Below, one piece after another: positions 1,663 to 51,574 of a DNA stretch of 64,000 nt. How positions within the stretch are numbered: the stretch's first letter is position 1; each line of letters starts with the position of its first letter. The position numbers and the translations under genes are program-made. The notes under the pieces were generated by a model, which saw only the letters and a list, made by a program, of their open reading frames with translations, was not told the origin of the DNA and made no database searches. Source of the stretch: a virus; IMG/VR virus record IMGVR_UViG_3300009593_002680, one strand, 5' to 3'.

Positions 1663-2449
1663 AGATAAAGCAAAAGTAAACTTTTGGTTATATACACTTC
1701 CTATTCAATTAGTTGGATGGTGTATTTTGCCTATTATGGCATACAATGGTGATTGGAATTATCTTTGGTTAGGTTTAATTACATACTTCCTATTTGGTTG
1801 TATAGGAATGGCTATTGGCTTACATAGATATTGGGGTCATGCCGCATTTGAAATGCCCAAATGGAAAGAACGTTTAATGACAACATGTAGTGTGTTTAAT
1901 GGATACGGAGCAATTTTCCCTTGGGTTATGATACACACAAATGGACATCATAAAAATGCCGACCAAGAAGGAGACCCACATAGTCCACTACAAGGATTTT
2001 TTCATGCATTTTTAACTTGGCATAGAGAACAAAAGTATTTTGATGAACACATAGATAGAAAAGTGTTAGTTAGATATATAAGAAGAGGATTTGTCAACGA
2101 CAAATATTATCAATTTTTAAATGACCACCATTTAGTAATTAACTATGGAACAGTTGGTTTAGCATGGTTACTATTTGGTTGGCAAGTTGCACTATACGGA
2201 ATTGTATTTGGTATATGGGCAACATTAATGAATACAAGTACTGTTACAGCATTTAGTCATTACAGTTGGTTTGGCTATAGAAATTTTGAGACAAAAGATA
2301 ATAGTGTTAATAACAGAATTGGTTCACTTTTAACTTGGGGAGAAATGTTGCATAACAATCATCATAGGTATTGGAATGCACAAAGTAATAGTCAACACTG
2401 GAGTGAAATAGACATTAGTGGCTGGGTAATTAAAGGACTTAAAAAATAA
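1625..2449 (+). CDS. membrane fatty acid desaturase (delta-9-like)
   Basis: Three His boxes HRYWGH, HTNGHH, HNNHH plus hydrophobic TM segments. Confidence 0.9.
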   Translation: MKQVLNSLTNFFKDKAKVNFWLYTLPIQLVGWCILPIMAYNGDWNYLWLGLITYFLFGCIGMAIGLHRYWGHAAFEMPKWKERLMTTCSVFNGYGAIFPWVMIHTNGHHKNADQEGDPHSPLQGFFHAFLTWHREQKYFDEHIDRKVLVRYIRRGFVNDKYYQFLNDHHLVINYGTVGLAWLLFGWQVALYGIVFGIWATLMNTSTVTAFSHYSWFGYRNFETKDNSVNNRIGSLLTWGEMLHNNHHRYWNAQSNSQHWSEIDISGWVIKGLKK

Positions 2450-3219
2450 TGTTATTCTATTTAATATTCCTTCCAGTTTGTTTTATATCTTTGCTATGGA
2501 GTATAGCCAATGGTAGTACGCAGTTATTATGTGCTACCATTCTTTTTACATGGTTATACAGCGGCTATGGTATAAGTGTTGGGTTCCATAGATTACATGC
2601 CCACAATAGTTTTAAAACTTGGGAGCCTATAAGAAAGTTACTACTTTACTTAGGTTGTCAAGGAGCACAAGGTTCACCGGTGACTTGGACCTTAATACAT
2701 AATAGAAGTCATCACGCACATACAGACACAAATAAAGACGTACATACTCCAACAAGAGGTATTTTATATGCCTTAGGCGGTTGGATATATCATAAAGAAA
2801 ATCACGAATTTGCAAGAAAAGAAATTTTTAAAATTAAAAAAACTTTAGACCCATTTGCAGTCTGGTGCCACAAGAATTATTATATGTTAATCCTACTAAA
2901 CTTATTGATTATTTCACTATTAACAGTTTGGTGGTTCGACGGAAGATATATATTAGCAAGTTTGAATGGAAGTTTATTAGCAGTTGTTATAAGCGGATTA
3001 GTTAATTGGTTAGGACATTTTCCTATTAAAGGATTAACATATCAAACATCAAAAATGAAAAACAAGAGTACAAACAATCCTTGGTTAGCACCTCTAATAG
3101 GTTGGGGAGAGTTATTACATAATAACCATCATGCTAGACCAAGAAGATTAGAGTTTAATACTAAATGGTATGAAGTGGATATTGGCAAATGGATGATACA
3201 ACTAATACAGAAATCTTAA
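2449..3219 (+). CDS. second membrane fatty acid desaturase (delta-9-like)
   Basis: His boxes HRLHAH, HNRSHH, HNNHH; TM segments; TAATG coupling to the first desaturase. Confidence 0.9.
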   Translation: MLFYLIFLPVCFISLLWSIANGSTQLLCATILFTWLYSGYGISVGFHRLHAHNSFKTWEPIRKLLLYLGCQGAQGSPVTWTLIHNRSHHAHTDTNKDVHTPTRGILYALGGWIYHKENHEFARKEIFKIKKTLDPFAVWCHKNYYMLILLNLLIISLLTVWWFDGRYILASLNGSLLAVVISGLVNWLGHFPIKGLTYQTSKMKNKSTNNPWLAPLIGWGELLHNNHHARPRRLEFNTKWYEVDIGKWMIQLIQKS

Positions 3220-10328: not shown

Positions 10329-10604
10329 ATGGGACAGTACGACGATAGAGTAGAAAGGCAAAGGCAAGTTTTGTTGGCAGAAGAGTGGGCAAAAACACCT
10401 AGGTCAATTCATGTACATGGAATGACGTCAATGTGGTATGAAACTGAAGAGACTGAAGCAGAACTAATAGAAAATGGTACTGTAACAGATACACAATATA
10501 ATAGTGGAATTATTACAAGGCATAGGAATGGAAAACTTGTTCATACTTTTGGCGAAGAATTGAAAGGCGATGCATTAGTTGATTCATTTCGTAGACATAC
10601 TTAA
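10329..10604 (+). CDS. hypothetical protein
   Basis: 91 aa ORF after the tRNAs. Confidence 0.6.
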   Translation: MGQYDDRVERQRQVLLAEEWAKTPRSIHVHGMTSMWYETEETEAELIENGTVTDTQYNSGIITRHRNGKLVHTFGEELKGDALVDSFRRHT

Positions 10605-10626
10605 AAAAATACCGATAAATACTAGC

Positions 10627-11130
10627 ATGAAAGAATTTTTTAAAAGTGCTGGATTATTATTAGGTTGTATATTATTAAGTAGATTTATACTCCCTGACAA
10701 CATAACACCTTTAATAGCAATGGCAGTTTTCATGCCATACCTAACATCAAATAAACAATTACAAATGTTTTTACCTGTTAGTATGTTATTTGTAACAGAT
10801 ATTTTCTTAGGGTTTTATAGCACTATGTGGCTAACTTATGGAATAATGGCCCTTATAGGCTTCATCTCCCGGGTTTTAAATAACGGACAGTACTCAACAC
10901 TAATGGGAACTTCTGCATTAAGTGTTGTTTTATGGCACTTAATTATAAACATTCCGGGACCTTTTCCACCTTTTTCACCAGAAGCATTGGTGTTTGATTT
11001 AAGATTATTAGCAAGTACTTTGGTATTTGCAAGTATATTTTATGCAATACAAAGAGCAGTTACACCTGAATTAGCAGAAGTAATTAATATTAACAATAAA
11101 CAAAAACAAAAATATGTCGGACGAATTTAA
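10627..11130 (+). CDS. multi-TM membrane protein, DUF6580 / ECF S-component-like
   Basis: RFILPDNITPLIAMAVF and LPVSMLFVTDIFLGFY pattern, about 5 TM segments; start moved to the ATG 5 nt after ATAAATA (10615-10621). Confidence 0.55.
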   Translation: MKEFFKSAGLLLGCILLSRFILPDNITPLIAMAVFMPYLTSNKQLQMFLPVSMLFVTDIFLGFYSTMWLTYGIMALIGFISRVLNNGQYSTLMGTSALSVVLWHLIINIPGPFPPFSPEALVFDLRLLASTLVFASIFYAIQRAVTPELAEVININNKQKQKYVGRI

Positions 11131-42105: not shown

Positions 42106-43278
42106 ATGTCAAAAACTTACGCAGATAAAAAGAACTCGAGGTTCCAAGAACAGGAAAGTAACTATGTTGATGTAAATCAACGTCTAACTGACTGTATTCA
42201 ATTAAATCCTATTCTCTCTAAAAAACTTAAAAGTGGTGTAGCAGAATGGATAGGTAGAAACCCCAAGTTGAAAAAATGGGCCGACATGGCTCTTGTAACA
42301 GCCGCACCAACAGACTTAACATTAGCAGATATCGATATAGATACTACAATGCAACGTCAAGTAAACTGGCGACACATACTTGCTATCTTACTTAAATTTA
42401 GCGAAAGCATGGTAATGCCTATACAATGTAATATTAATCCAGAAACAGGCAGACTAAATGCTTGGGACGGACAACACACAGTCATTGTGTTGTATATTAT
42501 TGCAGTTTGGATATTTGGATTAAATCCTAAAGAAGTAAAAATACCAGTAAACATTTACCCAAGAGCAAAACGTTTAGATATTAGACGTAACTTTATATTG
42601 CTAAATGGTGATGCTAAAGATCCATTAGATACAATTGATTTAGTTGAATCAATGATTATGGGTGTGAATGTTGATGGATCAGATGATGCTGAATGGGTAG
42701 AGATGTCAGAGAAACAGGCAATGATGGCAGAAGTTGGATTGTTCATGACACACAAGAAGTTGGGCGATGAAGATGAAGCAGGTGCATTTACACTATTAGC
42801 AGATACTGTTTACTCGAAAAAGAAAGACAAGCAGAAGCCTAAAGAAGTTACACAAATGTTCTGTGACTATTGGGCATACATTGACCAAGAACGTCCTGTA
42901 CAAGCAAAAGAAGCCAGACAGTTGTATGAGTTCTTTAACTTACTATACGAACAAGGCATCGATGTTACTGATGATTACTTGGTACAGTTTGCGGCATTCA
43001 CAAAACAACACTTTAATGCAGACTTTAGCCCTGATGGTCAATTTTGGTTAAAAGTAAGAGCAAGTTTTGAGAATTGGTATAAAGCATTTCATAGAAAAGA
43101 TCCTAATAAAATATGTCCTAAGACTGGAGACATTATAGCAAGAAACTATTGGGCTTCAGAAATATATACAGGACTACCTTTCTTAATTGCTCAAATGAAT
43201 AAAAGTGTACCAGATATGCAAACACCGTTCTATGATGCTCCTAGTGGTTACAAACCTAAGGAAAATGAACTATGGTAA
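42106..43278 (+). CDS. ParB/Srx-superfamily (DGQH-type) protein
   Basis: DIDTTMQR...MPI...LNAWDGQHT...F..LNG. Confidence 0.6.
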   Translation: MSKTYADKKNSRFQEQESNYVDVNQRLTDCIQLNPILSKKLKSGVAEWIGRNPKLKKWADMALVTAAPTDLTLADIDIDTTMQRQVNWRHILAILLKFSESMVMPIQCNINPETGRLNAWDGQHTVIVLYIIAVWIFGLNPKEVKIPVNIYPRAKRLDIRRNFILLNGDAKDPLDTIDLVESMIMGVNVDGSDDAEWVEMSEKQAMMAEVGLFMTHKKLGDEDEAGAFTLLADTVYSKKKDKQKPKEVTQMFCDYWAYIDQERPVQAKEARQLYEFFNLLYEQGIDVTDDYLVQFAAFTKQHFNADFSPDGQFWLKVRASFENWYKAFHRKDPNKICPKTGDIIARNYWASEIYTGLPFLIAQMNKSVPDMQTPFYDAPSGYKPKENELW

Positions 43279-43721
43279 AGTTAAGACTCAGAGAAGAAGA
43301 CGTAGAAAAGCCAGACAGGCTCATTAAAGAGCAAATGGGCATGAAATGTATGCTTGAAGATTGCGATGAAGAGTTGACTACTATGACTGGACCAGGTAGT
43401 AACATACTATGTAGAGAGCATCAATTAGAATGTGTTGAATATGGAGGTATGGGTAAACCAGAAAGACCTTGGACATTTTATAGAACTATGGAATGTGCAA
43501 AGTGTGGATATAACCCGACTGAAGATCCACAGTTCGAAGAGATAGAAGATGAGTATCATAGACTTCGTGTAATGCGAGCCATTATGCATGGTGACCATAT
43601 ACACCTAAAGAGCCAAGGCGGTGCTAATACGAAGGATAACATACAGACATTATGTGTTAAATGCCATATGATTAAAACATATAAGGATAAGGATTATTTA
43701 GGTGCCAAACAAAACAATTGA
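43272..43721 (+). CDS. HNH endonuclease-like protein
   Basis: CAKC...GDHIHLKSQGGANTKDNIQTLCVKCHMIKT. Confidence 0.8.
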   Translation: MVKLRLREEDVEKPDRLIKEQMGMKCMLEDCDEELTTMTGPGSNILCREHQLECVEYGGMGKPERPWTFYRTMECAKCGYNPTEDPQFEEIEDEYHRLRVMRAIMHGDHIHLKSQGGANTKDNIQTLCVKCHMIKTYKDKDYLGAKQNN

Positions 43722-44601: not shown

Positions 44602-44970
44602 TTATAGGTCAAATGCGGCAACTGTTGCTGATGCAAGGTTAATTCCATCTACAGTTCCTAATGCTATAACAACATCTTCTAAGTGAGCCGCTAGGGTTTC
44701 ACTGTTTGTTCCGTCGTATGTATCAGTTCCGTGTTCACCTTCAAAAAGAATTTTAAGTCCTTGTCCAGTTCCACCTGTGTTATCAACTGTACCAATTGCT
44801 AAAGGTGTTAGACCTTCGTTTTGAATTGCTTTCATTGTTGCGTCTACGGCTGAGCCTACTGCCAATTTAGCAGAACAGTCTGCGCCGAAATCTATTTGGA
44901 TACCCGCAAGTACTTTACCACCTACGTGTCCAGCGGCTACTGCCGCGCCTGAGTTTTGAGTTTGTGCCAT
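44602..44970 (-). CDS. small A/G/T-rich putative virion structural protein
   Basis: TATAAATA at 45028-45035 (minus), AGGAG SD; shares LGTVD motif with its neighbour. Confidence 0.55.
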   Translation of the reverse strand: MAQTQNSGAAVAAGHVGGKVLAGIQIDFGADCSAKLAVGSAVDATMKAIQNEGLTPLAIGTVDNTGGTGQGLKILFEGEHGTDTYDGTNSETLAAHLEDVVIALGTVDGINLASATVAAFDL

Positions 44971-45094: not shown

Positions 45095-45142
45095 TTGATT
45101 TTTGCCAATAAAGTACTATATAATACATATAGATTATAAATA
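45095..45142 (+). promoter_or_regulatory. tandem sigma70-like (TTGATT-N18-TATAAT) and late (TATAAATA, 45135-45142) promoters
   Basis: Motifs read directly. Confidence 0.55.
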
Positions 45143-45147
45143 TCTTT

Positions 45148-45490
45148 GCAATTACAAAAGTAAGGGCAACAGGATCGTAAGTGAATGACGTCTACTACAA
45201 TTGAAATTGCATGTATTATCAACGGAAAGGTAACACAAGGTAATTGGATCGTAAGTGAAAAAAACCGACTGGTGACCAAACAAAGAAGATAATACATTAT
45301 TAAGACATAGTCTTAAAAAGAGCTCGGACAAAGCGAAATCTTCGGACTAGTGGAGTTTTAAAAAGAGCTCGGACAATGTCTACTTGGGTTGCCCAACAAA
45401 GGACTTTAATTGGCAAGAGTTAAAGAAACCAAGAAGTGCAACAAGTAGGAAGAAGGGACAGGACACACACTAACGAATGCCCCTTCATCC
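45148..45490 (+). ncRNA. candidate large structured GGA-rich RNA
   Basis: No plus-strand ORF in the track; 14-bp and 19-bp direct repeats; several 6-11 bp helices; 11 GGA motifs in 45172-45463. Confidence 0.55.
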
Positions 45491-45533
45491 CGCGAACTTT
45501 TTATTCGCCATATGGGTTTAAAAAGTTGGAATA

Positions 45534-45565
45534 GATAAACTTGCTAAATATAGGAGATTATTATG
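45534..45565 (+). promoter_or_regulatory. ROSE-like RNA thermometer hairpin over the hsp20 SD
   Basis: CTTGCTA-AATA-TAGGAG: UUGCU pairs with AGGA leaving the G bulged; outer helix GATAA/TTATT. Confidence 0.7.
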
Positions 45566-46000
45566 AATAAGCAAATCCGATTCACAACCGAATCACTATC
45601 CCCACTATATAAAATGAGTATAGGTTTTGACAGACTAGCAGAACAGTTTTTCAATGACCCTACTTTCTCAAATGCACAAACAGGCTATCCGCCTTATAAC
45701 ATTGCCAAAAAAGAAGATGATATATATGAAGTCACTCTTGCAGTAGCAGGATTCAAAAAAGACGACATTGATATTTCACTTGAAGATGGCACACTTATTA
45801 TAAAAGGTGAAAGCAACGTGCTAGATGAGTCCGTTGAATATCTTCATAAAGGTATTGCTGAAAGAAACTTTATTAGAACTTTCAAACTTGCAGAGTTTGT
45901 TGAAGTTAAAGAAGCAAAACTTGAGGACGGTATTTTAAGAGTTTCATTATTTAGGAATGTTCCTGATGCCATGAAACCGAAAAAAATCGAGATATCATAA
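45563..46000 (+). CDS. hsp20: small heat shock protein (Hsp20, IbpA-like)
   Basis: IGFDRL, YPPYNI, LAVAGF, YLHKGIAERNF, LEDGILRV. Confidence 0.95.
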   Translation: MNKQIRFTTESLSPLYKMSIGFDRLAEQFFNDPTFSNAQTGYPPYNIAKKEDDIYEVTLAVAGFKKDDIDISLEDGTLIIKGESNVLDESVEYLHKGIAERNFIRTFKLAEFVEVKEAKLEDGILRVSLFRNVPDAMKPKKIEIS

Positions 46001-46050: not shown

Positions 46051-46254
46051 ATGGCAAAAAAAGACAAAAGAAAGACGTTAGTTTATTTGATTCCTGAAGG
46101 TGAAACAAGGGACAGTCATACCTATCATTATACAGCATTGAAAACAAAAAGGTTGACAATTGAAAATATTAAGTTAAAATTAAGAAAGTATAATCCGGTA
46201 AAGCGAAAACACGAAATGTTCGTTGAAGCAAAATTACCACCACATAGTAAATAG
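46051..46254 (+). CDS. rpmG: ribosomal protein bL33 homolog (Zn-free type)
   Basis: HYTALKTKR...KLKLRKYNPVKRKHEMFVE; no CxxC motifs. Confidence 0.8.
   Translation: MAKKDKRKTLVYLIPEGETRDSHTYHYTALKTKRLTIENIKLKLRKYNPVKRKHEMFVEAKLPPHSK
46153..46180 (+). promoter_or_regulatory. internal promoter (GG)TTGACA-N16-TAAAAT inside the bL33 gene
   Basis: Same extended -35 as the other early promoters; points at clpS-sufB. Confidence 0.5.
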
Positions 46255-46261
46255 GTACAAT

Positions 46262-46561
46262 ATGACACAAGAAGCAGTTAAAACTAGAGCAACAACAGAA
46301 TTGCGTTATCCTCCAAGGTTTGATGTAATTGTTTTTAATGACGATTACACTCCAGTTGATTTTGTAATTAGACTGTTAGTTGAGATATTCAATAAAAACG
46401 TTGAAACTGCTAAAGAAGTTACAATGCAAATACACGAACATGGACAAGCAGTAGCAGGTTCATATAATTGGGAAATTGCAGAGCAAAAAACCACAGAAGC
46501 AATAGCAACTGCTAGAGCAAGTGGTCACCCTTTACAACTTAAAACCAAACAGGTAGAATGA
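46262..46561 (+). CDS. clpS: N-end rule adaptor ClpS
   Basis: [22 protein letters not shown]...GHPL. Confidence 0.92.
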
Positions 46562-48018
46562 GCATAGATAATCTTGAGAAAAATAAGAAATACCAAGAAG
46601 GGTTCGTAACTGAATTAGAGAGCGAATCTTTTCCAGCGGGTCTTGATGAACAAGTTGTAAGAAATTTAAGTGCAATTAAAAATGAGCCCGAATGGTTATT
46701 GGAGTTTAGATTAAAAGCATTTAAAAGATGGGAGTCTATGTCGGAACCAGAATGGGGAGAACTAGATTACGAACCCGTTGACTACCAAGCATTAAGTTAT
46801 CACTCTGCACCAAAGAAATTTGACAAAGATGAAATACCACCAGAGATATTTGAAACATTTGAAAAGTTAGGTGTACCATTACATGAACGTGATGCATTAT
46901 TAGGCTTAGATACAGAAAAGCCAAAACCAGATAACCTTATTCCAACAGTAGCCGTTGACGCAGTATTTGATAGTGTTAGTGTTGCTACAACATTTAAAGC
47001 AGAACTAGAAAAACATGGTATTGTATTTTGCAGTATCAGTGAAGCAGTACAGGATCATCCTGAACTAGTTAAAAAATATTTAGGTAGTGTGATACCTTAC
47101 ACAGACAATTACTTTGCTACACTGAACTCTGCTGTATTCTCAGACGGTACCTTTTGCTATATACCTAAGGGTGTAACATGCCCAATGGAACTCAATACAT
47201 ATTTTAGAATAAATGCTAGAAACACAGGACAGTTTGAACGTACACTTATTATAGCAGACGAAGATAGTTATGTAAGTTACTTAGAAGGTTGTACTGCTCC
47301 AGCATATGATGAGAATACATTACATGCCGCCTGTGTAGAATTAATTACATTAGATAATGCAGAAATAAAATATTCCACAGTACAAAATTGGTACCCAGGA
47401 GATGAAGATGGAGTAGGTGGAGTATATAACTTTGTAACAAAACGTGCAAAGTGTGAAGGCAAGAACAGTAAAGTTAGTTGGACTCAAGTAGAAACAGGAA
47501 GTGCAATTACATCGAAATACCCTAGTTGTATTTTAAAAGGAGAAGGTAGTGTAGGAGAATTTTTTAGTGTTGCAGTTACAAAAGGCAAACAACAAGCAGA
47601 CACAGGCACTAAAATGATACACTTAGGAAAGGATACCAAAAGCACCATTATATCCAAAGGCATAAGTTTTGGAGATAGTACAAATACATATAGAGGTGCA
47701 GTAAAAATAAATCCGGGTGCCAATGATGCATCTAATTATACAAAGTGTGATAGTTTAATGCTACAAGACAGTAGGGCATTAACTATACCATATGTTACAA
47801 GTCAAAATGATACTGCAACTGTAGAGCATGAAGCAAGTGCAGGAAAAATAAGTGAAGAACAAATGTATTACTTGGCAACAAGAGGTTTTAGTGAGGATGA
47901 TGCGATGAATTTAGTAGTAAATGGATTCTGTAAAGATGTGTTTCAAAAACTACCATTAGAATTTGCCGCTGAAGCCAATAAACTATTGAGTATAACACTA
48001 GAAGGTGCCGTAGGATAA
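46558..48018 (+). CDS. sufB: Fe-S cluster assembly scaffold SufB
   Basis: [61 protein letters not shown]. Confidence 0.97.
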
Positions 48019-48021
48019 TCG

Positions 48022-48050
48022 TTGACATTAATTACCAAAGGTAGTATAAT
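48022..48050 (+). promoter_or_regulatory. sigma70 promoter TTGACA-N17-TATAAT, 6 nt before the sufC ATG
   Basis: Perfect consensus; no SD. Confidence 0.85.
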
Positions 48051-48056
48051 ACGCAG

Positions 48057-48752
48057 ATGTTAGAATTAAAAGACTATTCAGTTAATCCTATACTTGAAGG
48101 TATAAACATTGAGTTTGACGTAGGTCGAACTTATATTGTTATGGGTGCTAATGGAGTAGGTAAAAGTACATTGTTGCATAGTATTATGGGAAGACCTGAT
48201 TTAGATGTAAAAGGTACACTTAAACTTAATGGTCAAGATATCAGTGAACTTGAAGTAGATGAAAGAGCAAACCTAGGAATGTTTGTAGGGTTCCAAGCAC
48301 CAACAAGTGTTCCTGGATTAAGTAACTTTCAATTTATGAAACAAGCATTAAACACTGAAGGTAAAGATATTAGAGAAACATTAGAAAAATTCAAAGCATT
48401 AACACATACTTTAGGATTGCCTGAAGGTTGGGACAAGCGAAACTTAAACACAGATGCTAGTGGTGGTGAGAAAAAGAAAAATGAGTTAATACAAATGAGC
48501 ATGTTGCCTACAAAGTTAGCCATGTTAGATGAACCAGACAGTGGTTTAGATGTTGATGGTATTAAAGCATTATCAAAACAATTGAATGAATGGAGAACAG
48601 CCGACAATACACTTATTGTTGTAACACACTACGAAAAACTTATAGAAAGTCTAGATCCTGATGCAATTCTTGTGTTAAAGAAAGACCACATAGTTGGTGG
48701 TGATAAAACGTTAGCACAGAAAATATTTGCAGAAGGGTTTGATAGTGTTTAA
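48057..48752 (+). CDS. sufC: Fe-S assembly ABC ATPase SufC
   Basis: GANGVGKS, SGGEKKKNE, LDEPDSGLDVD, VTHY. Confidence 0.95.
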   Translation: MLELKDYSVNPILEGINIEFDVGRTYIVMGANGVGKSTLLHSIMGRPDLDVKGTLKLNGQDISELEVDERANLGMFVGFQAPTSVPGLSNFQFMKQALNTEGKDIRETLEKFKALTHTLGLPEGWDKRNLNTDASGGEKKKNELIQMSMLPTKLAMLDEPDSGLDVDGIKALSKQLNEWRTADNTLIVVTHYEKLIESLDPDAILVLKKDHIVGGDKTLAQKIFAEGFDSV

Positions 48753-50022
48753 AAATTTATACAGTTCAAATATATTAACAAAACAAAATGGATTTGAAAG
48801 TTTTTATAAACTTGAAGACATCCTCGATTTTGTAACATCTCCGATATACTTAGAAGAATTAGAAAATTCTGAATACAAGAAAAAGGTTCCAGGGTTACAT
48901 AAACATTATGTAGACAATTTATATTACCTACGTGAAATAGGTTTACCTTCTAATAAAAACGAACAATTTAATTTTAGTAATATTAATAAATTAAAAAACA
49001 TAGATATTTTAAATACTGAATCGAGAACTATTAGTGGCGTAGATGATTTAGTAAAGTATGAATATCTAGCAACTGAGAAAAATACAGTAGTTATAACAGA
49101 TGGTCATATATTAAGTAGTACAGACGTTAGTACAAAGAAACCATTTAATGTACAAATACTAGATAACATAAAATATAACAAACAAAAGCAAGATGAGTAT
49201 GTTAAAATTATTGAACATACAAATGATTTTAGAAACTTAACATACGCATTATCAACTTTTCCTAATATAATAATTTTTCCTTCGGGAAGTAAAGATAACT
49301 TTTATAAGAATCCATTTACTATTGAATATGTTAATGGTACTGATGATCCTGTATTACAAGCAAACACTAGTATAGTTGATATACAATATAATACAAAAGT
49401 TAAATTAAGAGAACGTGTAAAAAGTCTTGCTGGACAAATGAACTATGTAACATACATTGTAAGAGAAGATGCAGAGTTAGAAATTGTTAGAAACTCAAAA
49501 GACTTAGGTGGTTGGACATTGTTTGATAGTAGGTTTGTTTGTCACCCAGGTAGTAAAGTTACAGTAAAGTTTAAGAACGAAGGTAGTCAATATTCACAAG
49601 AAAATTTTTACTTTAAATGTAGTAGTCATGTTGAAGTAGATTTAGTTGGTAGAAACAATATTAAAAAAGGAAATGATTATCATCAGTTTGTACAAGTAAA
49701 AAGTCAAAACGATAGCAACAAAAGTGTAATAGATATAAAAAATGTTGGTAACGAAAATGCCAATACAAGTTTTATAGGAAAGTATGATGTTAGTCCATTT
49801 AGTATAGGGTTCGATGGACAGATGAGTAATGAGAATTTAATGCTAACAAAAAATGTTAAAATGCATACTCGTCCAATATTGGATATTCATACCAAAGAAA
49901 TTGAATGCTCACATGGTTGCACGATAAGTAATATTAATAAGGACCATTTGTACTATCTGCAAAGTAGAGGATTTAGCAGACAAAAAGCAAATGACATTTT
50001 AGTGGACAGTTTCCTATGTTAA
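48727..50022 (+). CDS. sufD: SufD-like protein
   Basis: C-terminal PILDIHTKEIECSHGCTI...YYLQSRG; operon position; start uncertain. Confidence 0.85.
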   Translation: MQKGLIVFKNLYSSNILTKQNGFESFYKLEDILDFVTSPIYLEELENSEYKKKVPGLHKHYVDNLYYLREIGLPSNKNEQFNFSNINKLKNIDILNTESRTISGVDDLVKYEYLATEKNTVVITDGHILSSTDVSTKKPFNVQILDNIKYNKQKQDEYVKIIEHTNDFRNLTYALSTFPNIIIFPSGSKDNFYKNPFTIEYVNGTDDPVLQANTSIVDIQYNTKVKLRERVKSLAGQMNYVTYIVREDAELEIVRNSKDLGGWTLFDSRFVCHPGSKVTVKFKNEGSQYSQENFYFKCSSHVEVDLVGRNNIKKGNDYHQFVQVKSQNDSNKSVIDIKNVGNENANTSFIGKYDVSPFSIGFDGQMSNENLMLTKNVKMHTRPILDIHTKEIECSHGCTISNINKDHLYYLQSRGFSRQKANDILVDSFLC

Positions 50023-51248
50023 AAGCATACAAAAAAGCAAAATCAATAAAACAAATACGAGCATGTTTTCCTGCTCTAGCATATAGTGATATAACTTACT
50101 TAGATAATGCGGCTAGTACTCAAACAGTAGATAGTAGTATTAAAGCAGTAAGTGATTACCATTATAACTACAGAGCAAATGTGCATAGGGGTGATTTTAA
50201 AACAAGTCATATTGCAACAGACTTATATGATGAAGCAAGAGAAGAAGTTGCAAAGTTATTAAATTGTGAAGCATACGAAATTGCATTTACAAGTGGTACT
50301 ACAGAAAGTTTAAATATGATTGCAGAGCATTATGCTAATGATGATAGACAAGTTATTATAACACACTTAGAACATCACAGTAATAGTTTACCTTGGATGA
50401 AGCAAGGACGTAATGCAGAAAATGGCGGACTACTTGTTTGCAAAGCAACTGATGTTGGTGATGTTAGTATGCAGGATTGGGAAGAAATATGTTCTGAAAA
50501 TCCTGGAAGTATTGTATCATTTTTAACACAAAGTAATTTAAGTGGACACATGTTAAAATGGAACCAAATGGTCCATATAGCAAAAGAACATGATTGTGAA
50601 GTTATACTTGATGCTTGTCAAAGTATTGCACACCAACCAATAGATACTAAAATGAATAACATAGATTGGATTGCTTTTAGTGGACATAAAATGTTTGCTA
50701 GTACAGGAGTTGGTGTATTATTTCACAGAGGTGGATTTGCAGATATAGTATCACGTTTAGGTGGTGGTACAGTTAGTTATGTAGATTATGATAAAGGATA
50801 TACATTAAACAATGATGTTAGTCAAGTAGAATCAGGAACACCTAATATTGCAGGAGTACATAGTATTGGTGCCGCGGCTAAATGGATTCAAGAAATAGGA
50901 TATAAAGAGATACAAGAATGTGAAGCAGAATTTTTCTATATGCTTAAAGATAAAGGTCTTTTTGATATAGAACAGTTAAAACTAATTGGCGATCCGTACC
51001 CTAGAAGTGTTTTTAGTTTTGTTGTAGACCCAGAGTTAGATTACAATGCAAGTGATTTGGCTGGATTTTTAGACTTAACTGATGTATGTGTTAGAACAGG
51101 ACACATGTGCGCCTATCCGGCAAGTATGAGATATAATCATTCAGGAAAAGGTATTTTTAGAGTTAGTGTTGCACCATACAATGATGAACACGATTGCGTT
51201 AAGTTAGTAGAGGGACTATGGAAAGCGATAGAGAAACTGGAGAAGTAA
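50016..51248 (+). CDS. sufS: cysteine desulfurase SufS (group II)
   Basis: YLDNAASTQ, EHHSN, FSGHKM (PLP Lys), ESGTPN, RTGHMCA. Confidence 0.93.
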   Translation: MLKAYKKAKSIKQIRACFPALAYSDITYLDNAASTQTVDSSIKAVSDYHYNYRANVHRGDFKTSHIATDLYDEAREEVAKLLNCEAYEIAFTSGTTESLNMIAEHYANDDRQVIITHLEHHSNSLPWMKQGRNAENGGLLVCKATDVGDVSMQDWEEICSENPGSIVSFLTQSNLSGHMLKWNQMVHIAKEHDCEVILDACQSIAHQPIDTKMNNIDWIAFSGHKMFASTGVGVLFHRGGFADIVSRLGGGTVSYVDYDKGYTLNNDVSQVESGTPNIAGVHSIGAAAKWIQEIGYKEIQECEAEFFYMLKDKGLFDIEQLKLIGDPYPRSVFSFVVDPELDYNASDLAGFLDLTDVCVRTGHMCAYPASMRYNHSGKGIFRVSVAPYNDEHDCVKLVEGLWKAIEKLEK

Positions 51249-51574
51249 GTCCACCTGAGAACTTACAAGACCAATTAGTAGAACAAATTATAGCAAACTT
51301 GCGTAGAGTTTACGATCCAGAGATTAATCTTAATGTTTACGACTTAGGTCTTATATATCAAGTAGCAGTAAATAAAGAATATGATGCTAATGTTATAATG
51401 ACATTGACATCGCCTAATTGCCCGGCGGCTGAAATTATTCCAATGGAAGTAGAGTTTGCCACTAGAGCAGTAGAATGTATTAATAAAGTAAAAGTAACAT
51501 TAACTTTTGATCCACCATGGAATCCAGACACCATGATTAGTGATGAAGGCAAATATCAAATAGGTATATTATGA
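51218..51574 (+). CDS. sufT: DUF59 / SufT Fe-S assembly protein
   Basis: VYDPEINLNVYDLGLIY, MTLTSPNCP, FDPPW. Confidence 0.9.
   Translation: MESDRETGEVSPPENLQDQLVEQIIANLRRVYDPEINLNVYDLGLIYQVAVNKEYDANVIMTLTSPNCPAAEIIPMEVEFATRAVECINKVKVTLTFDPPWNPDTMISDEGKYQIGIL

Follow-up and report, generated by a model that had tools for sequence, protein, structure and literature searches.

The stretch of DNA between positions 45148 and 45490 of the window (the whole 64,000-nt piece of viral DNA that was analysed, IMG/VR record IMGVR_UViG_3300009593_002680) is best explained as the upstream four-fifths of a structured 5' leader of about 430 nt (from approximately 45131 or 45148 to 45562) belonging to the small heat-shock gene hsp20, and this composite leader would act in cis to control hsp20 translation or mRNA stability, a reading to which a probability of about 0.65 is given. 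The leader is a conserved non-coding RNA that folds in the sense orientation. Its modules A-A-B-C fold independently, and downstream of them stand hairpin H and then a ROSE-like hairpin in which the Shine-Dalgarno sequence (SD) is paired. The elements, from promoter to gene, are the following:

45095-45124, plus strand: sigma70-type promoter from a consensus scan, with -35 TTGATT (45095-45100), -10 TATAAT (45119-45124) and an 18-nt spacer
45135-45142, plus strand: TATAAATA, a T4-late-type promoter motif, of which ATAAATA is invariant in the homologs
45147-45211, plus strand: helix P1 (45147-53/45205-11) enclosing module A1, from covariation in 36 sequences and MFE
45211-45297, plus strand: helix P4 (45211-20/45288-97) enclosing module A2 (45229-45277, GUAA at 45251-54)
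45303-45381, plus strand: module B, with outer helix 45303-12/45372-81 and half-sites 45313-27 and 45358-72
45380-45448, plus strand: C domain core, from covariation in 35 sequences (helices 1-3), with an identical MFE fold
45448-45490, plus strand: hairpin C4, with a covarying stem and a conserved 22-nt loop (45458-79)
45492-45525, plus strand: hairpin H (45497-45525, apex GCC-AUAU-GGG), covarying in 35 sequences, and an alternative pairing
45540-45562, plus strand: ROSE-like hairpin, CUUGCU opposite AGGAG (SD at 45552-56) with a bulged G, directly before the ATG at 45563
45563-46000, plus strand: hsp20, 145 aa (Pfam HSP20, E = 5.9e-19), the gene behind the leader

The RNA lies in a 592-nt gap bordered by a minus-strand ORFan (44602-44970) on one side and by the plus-strand hsp20 gene on the other. 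Of 30 homologs, only one keeps the small ORFs of this gap (45185-45292 and 45436-45534) intact, indicating that the stretch is non-coding, as had been supposed in an earlier reading made from the sequence alone (hereafter the sequence-only reading). A sigma70-like promoter and an exact TATAAATA had also been proposed upstream of the RNA and both were found there, the former matching the consensus at 10 of 12 positions and being near-invariant in an alignment of 11 related loci. If the spacing known from T4 applies here, the predicted late start would fall at about G45148, that is, on the first base of helix P1. In related Kyanoviridae, the late-type motif serves as a late promoter (PMC9004378). 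No terminator-like site was detected between 44800 and 45700, hence none separates the RNA from hsp20, and neither a tmRNA nor a tRNA was found at the locus.

The gene content of the window includes clpX, clpS, sufB, sufC, a ketoacyl synthase gene, tRNAs and many ORFans. On the 3' side of hsp20 and on the same strand (window 46051-51574) lie a small ORF, clpS (46223-46561) and sufB (46558-48018), as well as an ABC ATPase gene (48057-48752) that is presumably sufC; a longer operon may begin with the hsp20 leader. Just upstream of the locus (window 42106-43721), a 390-aa ORF without Pfam match overlaps an HNH endonuclease gene (43272-43721).

Homologs were obtained by anchoring on Hsp20, which yielded ten close viral contigs that all retain the upstream region, and further ones came from subsequent pattern scans. 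The comparison thereby covered some 90 unique leaders from marine viruses and metagenomes, measuring from 65 to about 590 nt between the late-type motif and the hsp20 ATG and displaying the same order of conserved promoter, modules, ROSE-like hairpin and hsp20. Leaders of types R, BBR, BBcCR, AAcCR, BBAAR, AABBR and AABB(c)CR were distinguished, the last being both the commonest type and that of the window; all of them have in common the promoter, the ATAAATA motif, hairpin H and the ROSE-like hairpin. This graded series of leaders with a constant promoter and ROSE-like element was counted in favour of the cis-acting leader. The cultured phages HTVC008M, Mosig and Melnitz possess just the late motif, hairpin H (with its apex also present) and the ROSE-like hairpin. 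No match was obtained with cultured phages at the DNA level, and the nearest cultured Hsp20 proteins, at 40-47% identity, are those of pelagimyophages and of the OM43 phage Melnitz, both Kyanoviridae. Hairpins with UCGUAA-containing loops were observed upstream of the late motif in HTVC008M (L142, 670-810) and Melnitz (L144, 680-810), together with the complementary CUUACGA or ACUUACG right behind this motif; a loop-to-leader pairing differing between early and late transcripts is possible in these two phages.

Marine metagenomes are rich in the repeat-pair pattern of module B (at least 120 loci), and an Hsp20 homolog is encoded behind 107 of the 124 unique B-bearing loci, most of the others ending at contig edges. 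Since the element is found within the hsp20 transcription unit in these 107 loci, its description as a free-standing non-coding RNA, which had been part of the sequence-only reading, is doubtful. A bacterial origin of module B was also considered and rejected, as 185,579 bacterial and archaeal species genomes gave only four chance-like matches, none of them with complementary hexamers. On large related contigs module B occurs once per genome and is therefore not a dispersed repeat. Three related viral contigs of 110-119 kb (G001-G003, of loci L002, L003 and L008) have a CheckV completeness of only about 30%, which suggests a very large phage; the genome is probably of jumbo size.

Both copies of module A are rods of the same design, in which helices of 4, 3 and 2 bp alternate with tandem A.A or G.A mismatches and a GUAA loop closed by a C-G pair forms the cap. 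In A1 the rod consists of GUA/UAC and GGGC/GUCU together with tandem purine mismatches, its tetraloop lies at 45177-80, and the 14-nt direct repeats reported previously at 45172-85 and 45246-59 are exact. Compensatory changes were observed in 10 of the 18 pairs of A1 and P1 (36 sequences), and none of 500 shuffles reached the observed values. The sequence of P4 varies across homologs with its complementarity kept, and MFE folding recovers this helix in 16 of 23 homologs as well as in the window, where single-sequence MFE folds of each module reproduce the comparative model. In the window, 43 sites are complementary to the A loop UCGUAAG where 41 are expected, which is no enrichment; the likeness of ACAAGGUAA/UCGUAAG to the 3' region of 16S was considered no better than chance, and scanning for a module A motif gave matches that were mostly fortuitous and in coding sequence. 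Pseudoknots were sought by eye between the A loops, between the CCAAC junction and GUUGG, and between the B bulges and the H stem, and none was consistent across homologs.

Module B contains the second pair of direct repeats, 19 nt long and exact at 45313-31 and 45358-76 as first described. Its GAGCUC hexamers (45320-25 and 45365-70) pair together, each being preceded by a 7-nt A-rich bulge. Among the 124 unique loci, the hexamers are GAGCUC with GAGCUC in 50, GAGCAC with GUGCUC in 43 and GUGCUC with GAGCAC in 31, so that complementarity is kept in all of them and the 12 non-complementary combinations are absent. Helices P1, P2 and P3 of module B all covary in 77 unique sequences, with 87% paired compared to 37-50% when slid, and the MFE fold of the window agrees with this comparative fold, the inner helix being weak in the window copy. 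The complementarity of the hexamers and the covarying outer and inner helices indicate that B is made of three stacked helices in a pseudo-twofold design, each side of the stack carrying one of two identical 7-nt A-rich bulges, and its G.U pairs assign the fold to the hsp20-sense strand. A protein operator at the DNA level had been considered for the 19-nt repeats and was rejected, because the non-palindromic hexamers stay complementary between copies and the G.U pairs fix the strand.

The outer helix of B also bears on the five helices put forward from the sequence alone. The TAAGAC/GTCTTA hairpin is unsupported, since its bases sit in the covarying long-range helix 45303-12/45372-81 that closes the 19-nt repeat pair and displaces it. 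For the other four (45211-20/45288-97, CTACTTG..GCAA-CAAGTAG, CTTTAA/TTAAAG and the 45448-90 hairpin), covariation in the homologs provides support, and the general description of a structured, internally duplicated RNA, which proves to be conserved, is borne out by the homologs and their covariation. In BBR-type leaders (L061 and L051, with a 62-nt spacing), a hairpin with a GGGCAAC loop, resembling the UGGCAA of C2, is found between the B half-sites; GGCAAC-like loops recur in other inserted hairpins, and the loop motif is complementary to the anti-SD UUGCU.

In the C domain, helix C1 (45383-92/45438-45) carries a GG bulge, helix C3 has 2 bp, hairpin C2 (45404-25) ends in the invariant loop UGGCAA and the junction strands are conserved. 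The stem of C4 contains five consecutive pairs that toggle between two pair types, each in 17-18 of the 35 sequences. When C, H and the ROSE-like hairpin were considered together, the 41 modelled pairs were 86% paired, slid controls giving 36-55%, and 24 of them showed compensatory changes, a number reached in none of 500 shuffles. Complementarity to the anti-SD UUGCU is seen in the invariant loop of C2, whose unvarying bases give no covariation signal. Hairpin H is followed 37 nt further by hsp20, and the ROSE-like hairpin between them is paired in 96.6% of the cells of the 35-sequence alignment and is recovered by MFE. Like ROSE elements, it is part of a small heat-shock gene's 5' UTR (Pfam HSP20; 107 of 124 loci) and pairs U(U/C)GCU with the SD AGGA around a bulged G; its score with the Rfam ROSE_3 model is 16 bits, under the 43-bit gathering cut-off (E = 1.5). 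At the gathering threshold, no Rfam match was obtained for the window RNA or for two other leader types, and at E<=10 the window gave only ROSE_3 (45504-68) and IMES-1 (13 bits), with no credible match in the two other leader types either.

According to the cis-acting leader model, transcription would start from both the sigma70-type and the T4-late-type promoters, and hairpin H and the ROSE-like hairpin would gate ribosome access as they do in bacterial sHsp leaders, while the A, B and C modules would tune translation and/or mRNA lifetime. The conserved loops and bulges of these modules suggest specific recognition rather than bulk structure, and A, B and C are probably protein or tertiary recognition elements. 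The loop UGGCAA of C2 could pair with the anti-SD UUGCU and open the putative thermometer, and the late transcript would have its 5' end closed off directly within helix P1, an arrangement that would protect the message as well. As for module B, its twofold symmetry would fit a homodimeric RNA-binding protein, for which the phage sHsp itself is a candidate, by analogy with self-repression by IbpA in E. coli, and RNase III an alternative one. E. coli IbpA represses its own mRNA by binding the 5' UTR through Arg93 (PMC10474464). The window Hsp20 carries the IbpA-type motif GIAERNF, identical to that of IbpA, and the equivalent of Arg93 is kept in this protein and in four other phage Hsp20s and is lost in IbpB; the conserved Arg is weak evidence, since it is common among sHsps.

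It was also considered that the modules could be passive stabilisers that, lacking any regulatory input, only shield hsp20 mRNA (and, for B, also 3' ends) against ribonucleases. In two metagenome contigs (L175 and L219), a lone module B follows the stop codon of an unrelated gene, between convergent genes, and its outer helix is succeeded by a U-run, suggesting that B doubles as an intrinsic terminator. Such a terminator stem and the predicted late 5' end sealed in P1 are both consistent with simple protection, but invariant loops, A-rich bulges and a junction-rich C domain would be unneeded for it, and this explanation is regarded as unlikely.

A few other loci break the link with hsp20. In L218 (Ga0206682_10000404, approximately 10400-11000), the promoter and A-A-B-B-C are present and the element stops after C4, with H, the ROSE-like hairpin and hsp20 absent and a reverse-strand gene following. 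Module B is found ahead of other small genes in L192, L193 and L157, and in the last of these (approximately 2330-2460, plus strand) it is followed by a different tandemly repeated structured stretch and then by a 51-aa ORF replacing hsp20. The few loci of this kind hint at an hsp20-independent role for the modules. A trans-acting modular non-coding RNA, working as a scaffold or decoy for an RNA-binding protein or RNase of the host or the phage and merely co-located or co-transcribed with hsp20, would be in agreement with the retention of the RNA without hsp20 in L218, with B in other contexts, with the strongly conserved, paired loop and bulge sequences and with the dual promoters. However, the RNA has no terminator of its own and stands directly upstream of hsp20 in 107 of 124 loci, shorter leaders have the same promoter without the modules, and sites complementary to the A loop are no more than expected in the window, so that this possibility appears rather unlikely. 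The hsp20-less L218 and the lone B modules at other genes also led us to consider, tentatively and with a low likelihood, that A-A-B-C represents a new large modular phage RNA class, in which paired symmetric modules would recruit or titrate specific proteins, probably dimeric and of host or phage origin, with a role beyond hsp20.

A riboswitch-like aptamer for a ligand or temperature, with the C domain as sensor and H versus GCGA/UCGC as expression platform, was examined in light of the multi-helix junction, its invariant bases and the mutually exclusive downstream hairpins; the many short purine-mismatch helices would also melt easily. The GCGA/UCGC alternative (45492-45508) is invariant and mutually exclusive with H but shows no covariation, C is dispensable in many leaders and no gene function links the locus to a metabolite, all of which makes an aptamer quite improbable.

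The sequence-only reading had tentatively proposed a phage CsrA/RsmA sponge or else another new class of non-coding RNA; the structured RNA without Rfam match stands, and the sponge does not. The 11 GGA trinucleotides counted in 45172-45463 (292 nt) are real, and their enrichment over local composition is genuine and modest, with 7.1 +/- 1.8 expected from dinucleotide-preserving shuffles (P = 0.027) and a mean of 3.6 in window pieces of the same size, 0.16% of which reach 11; homologs likewise average about 11 GGA per leader. Site by site, however, a single one of the 11 is retained by over 70% of 30 full-length homologs. The fold backed by covariation places nearly all GGAs in stems or variable linkers and only that at 45461 in a conserved loop, the conserved loops displaying UCGUAAG, UUCAAAA and UGGCAA instead. 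No CsrB/Rsm covariance-model match was obtained, either at the gathering threshold or at E<=10. With unconserved GGA sites, other motifs in the conserved loops, no Csr/Rsm match and no terminator of its own, the leader lends no support to a CsrA sponge, which is extremely improbable.

The leader does resemble CsrB, CsrC and RsmX/Y/Z in size, in its internal repeats and in having several GGAs, yet it differs from them by GGAs that are unconserved, outside loops and far fewer per length, and by repeats that pair with each other instead of forming one GGA hairpin each. Closer likeness is found with ROSE-like thermometers and the ibpA 5' UTR (Rfam ROSE_3, RF02523), the terminal H and ROSE-like hairpins resembling the short thermometers with two hairpins of bacterial ibpA (PMC3669281). 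In both cases the leader belongs to an sHsp gene, the final hairpin holds the AGGA(G) SD paired to UUGCU around a bulged G, a further hairpin precedes it, and the phage sHsp keeps the Arg motif of IbpA (PMC10474464); but those leaders measure about 60-110 nt, whereas the phage leader adds about 350 nt of covarying A, A, B and C modules without counterpart there. T4-type autogenous operators such as the gene 32 leader pseudoknot are also structured 5' leaders of T4-like phages, and binding by the encoded protein would be a putative shared feature by analogy; there is nevertheless no sequence or structural similarity between the two, and no pseudoknot was found in the hsp20 leader. IMES-1 (RF02034) is likewise a marine multi-helix RNA of several hundred nucleotides, but its score here is only 13 bits against an 81-bit cut-off, its architecture is different and the hsp20 leader is linked to a gene.

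Taken together, these results correct an attractive but unsupported CsrA-decoy reading and point to a cis-acting hsp20 leader. Few structured leaders seen on phage genes are as long or as well supported, and its three RNA modules are absent from Rfam and shuffled between phage lineages. The GUAA-capped purine-mismatch rod, the twofold-symmetric double-bulge module and the junction domain provide covariation-backed targets in the search for new RNA-protein or RNA-RNA motifs. Small heat-shock genes are near-core in abundant marine T4-like phages, and the leader would allow testing how phages control their chaperone supply, whether by temperature, chaperone feedback or mRNA protection.
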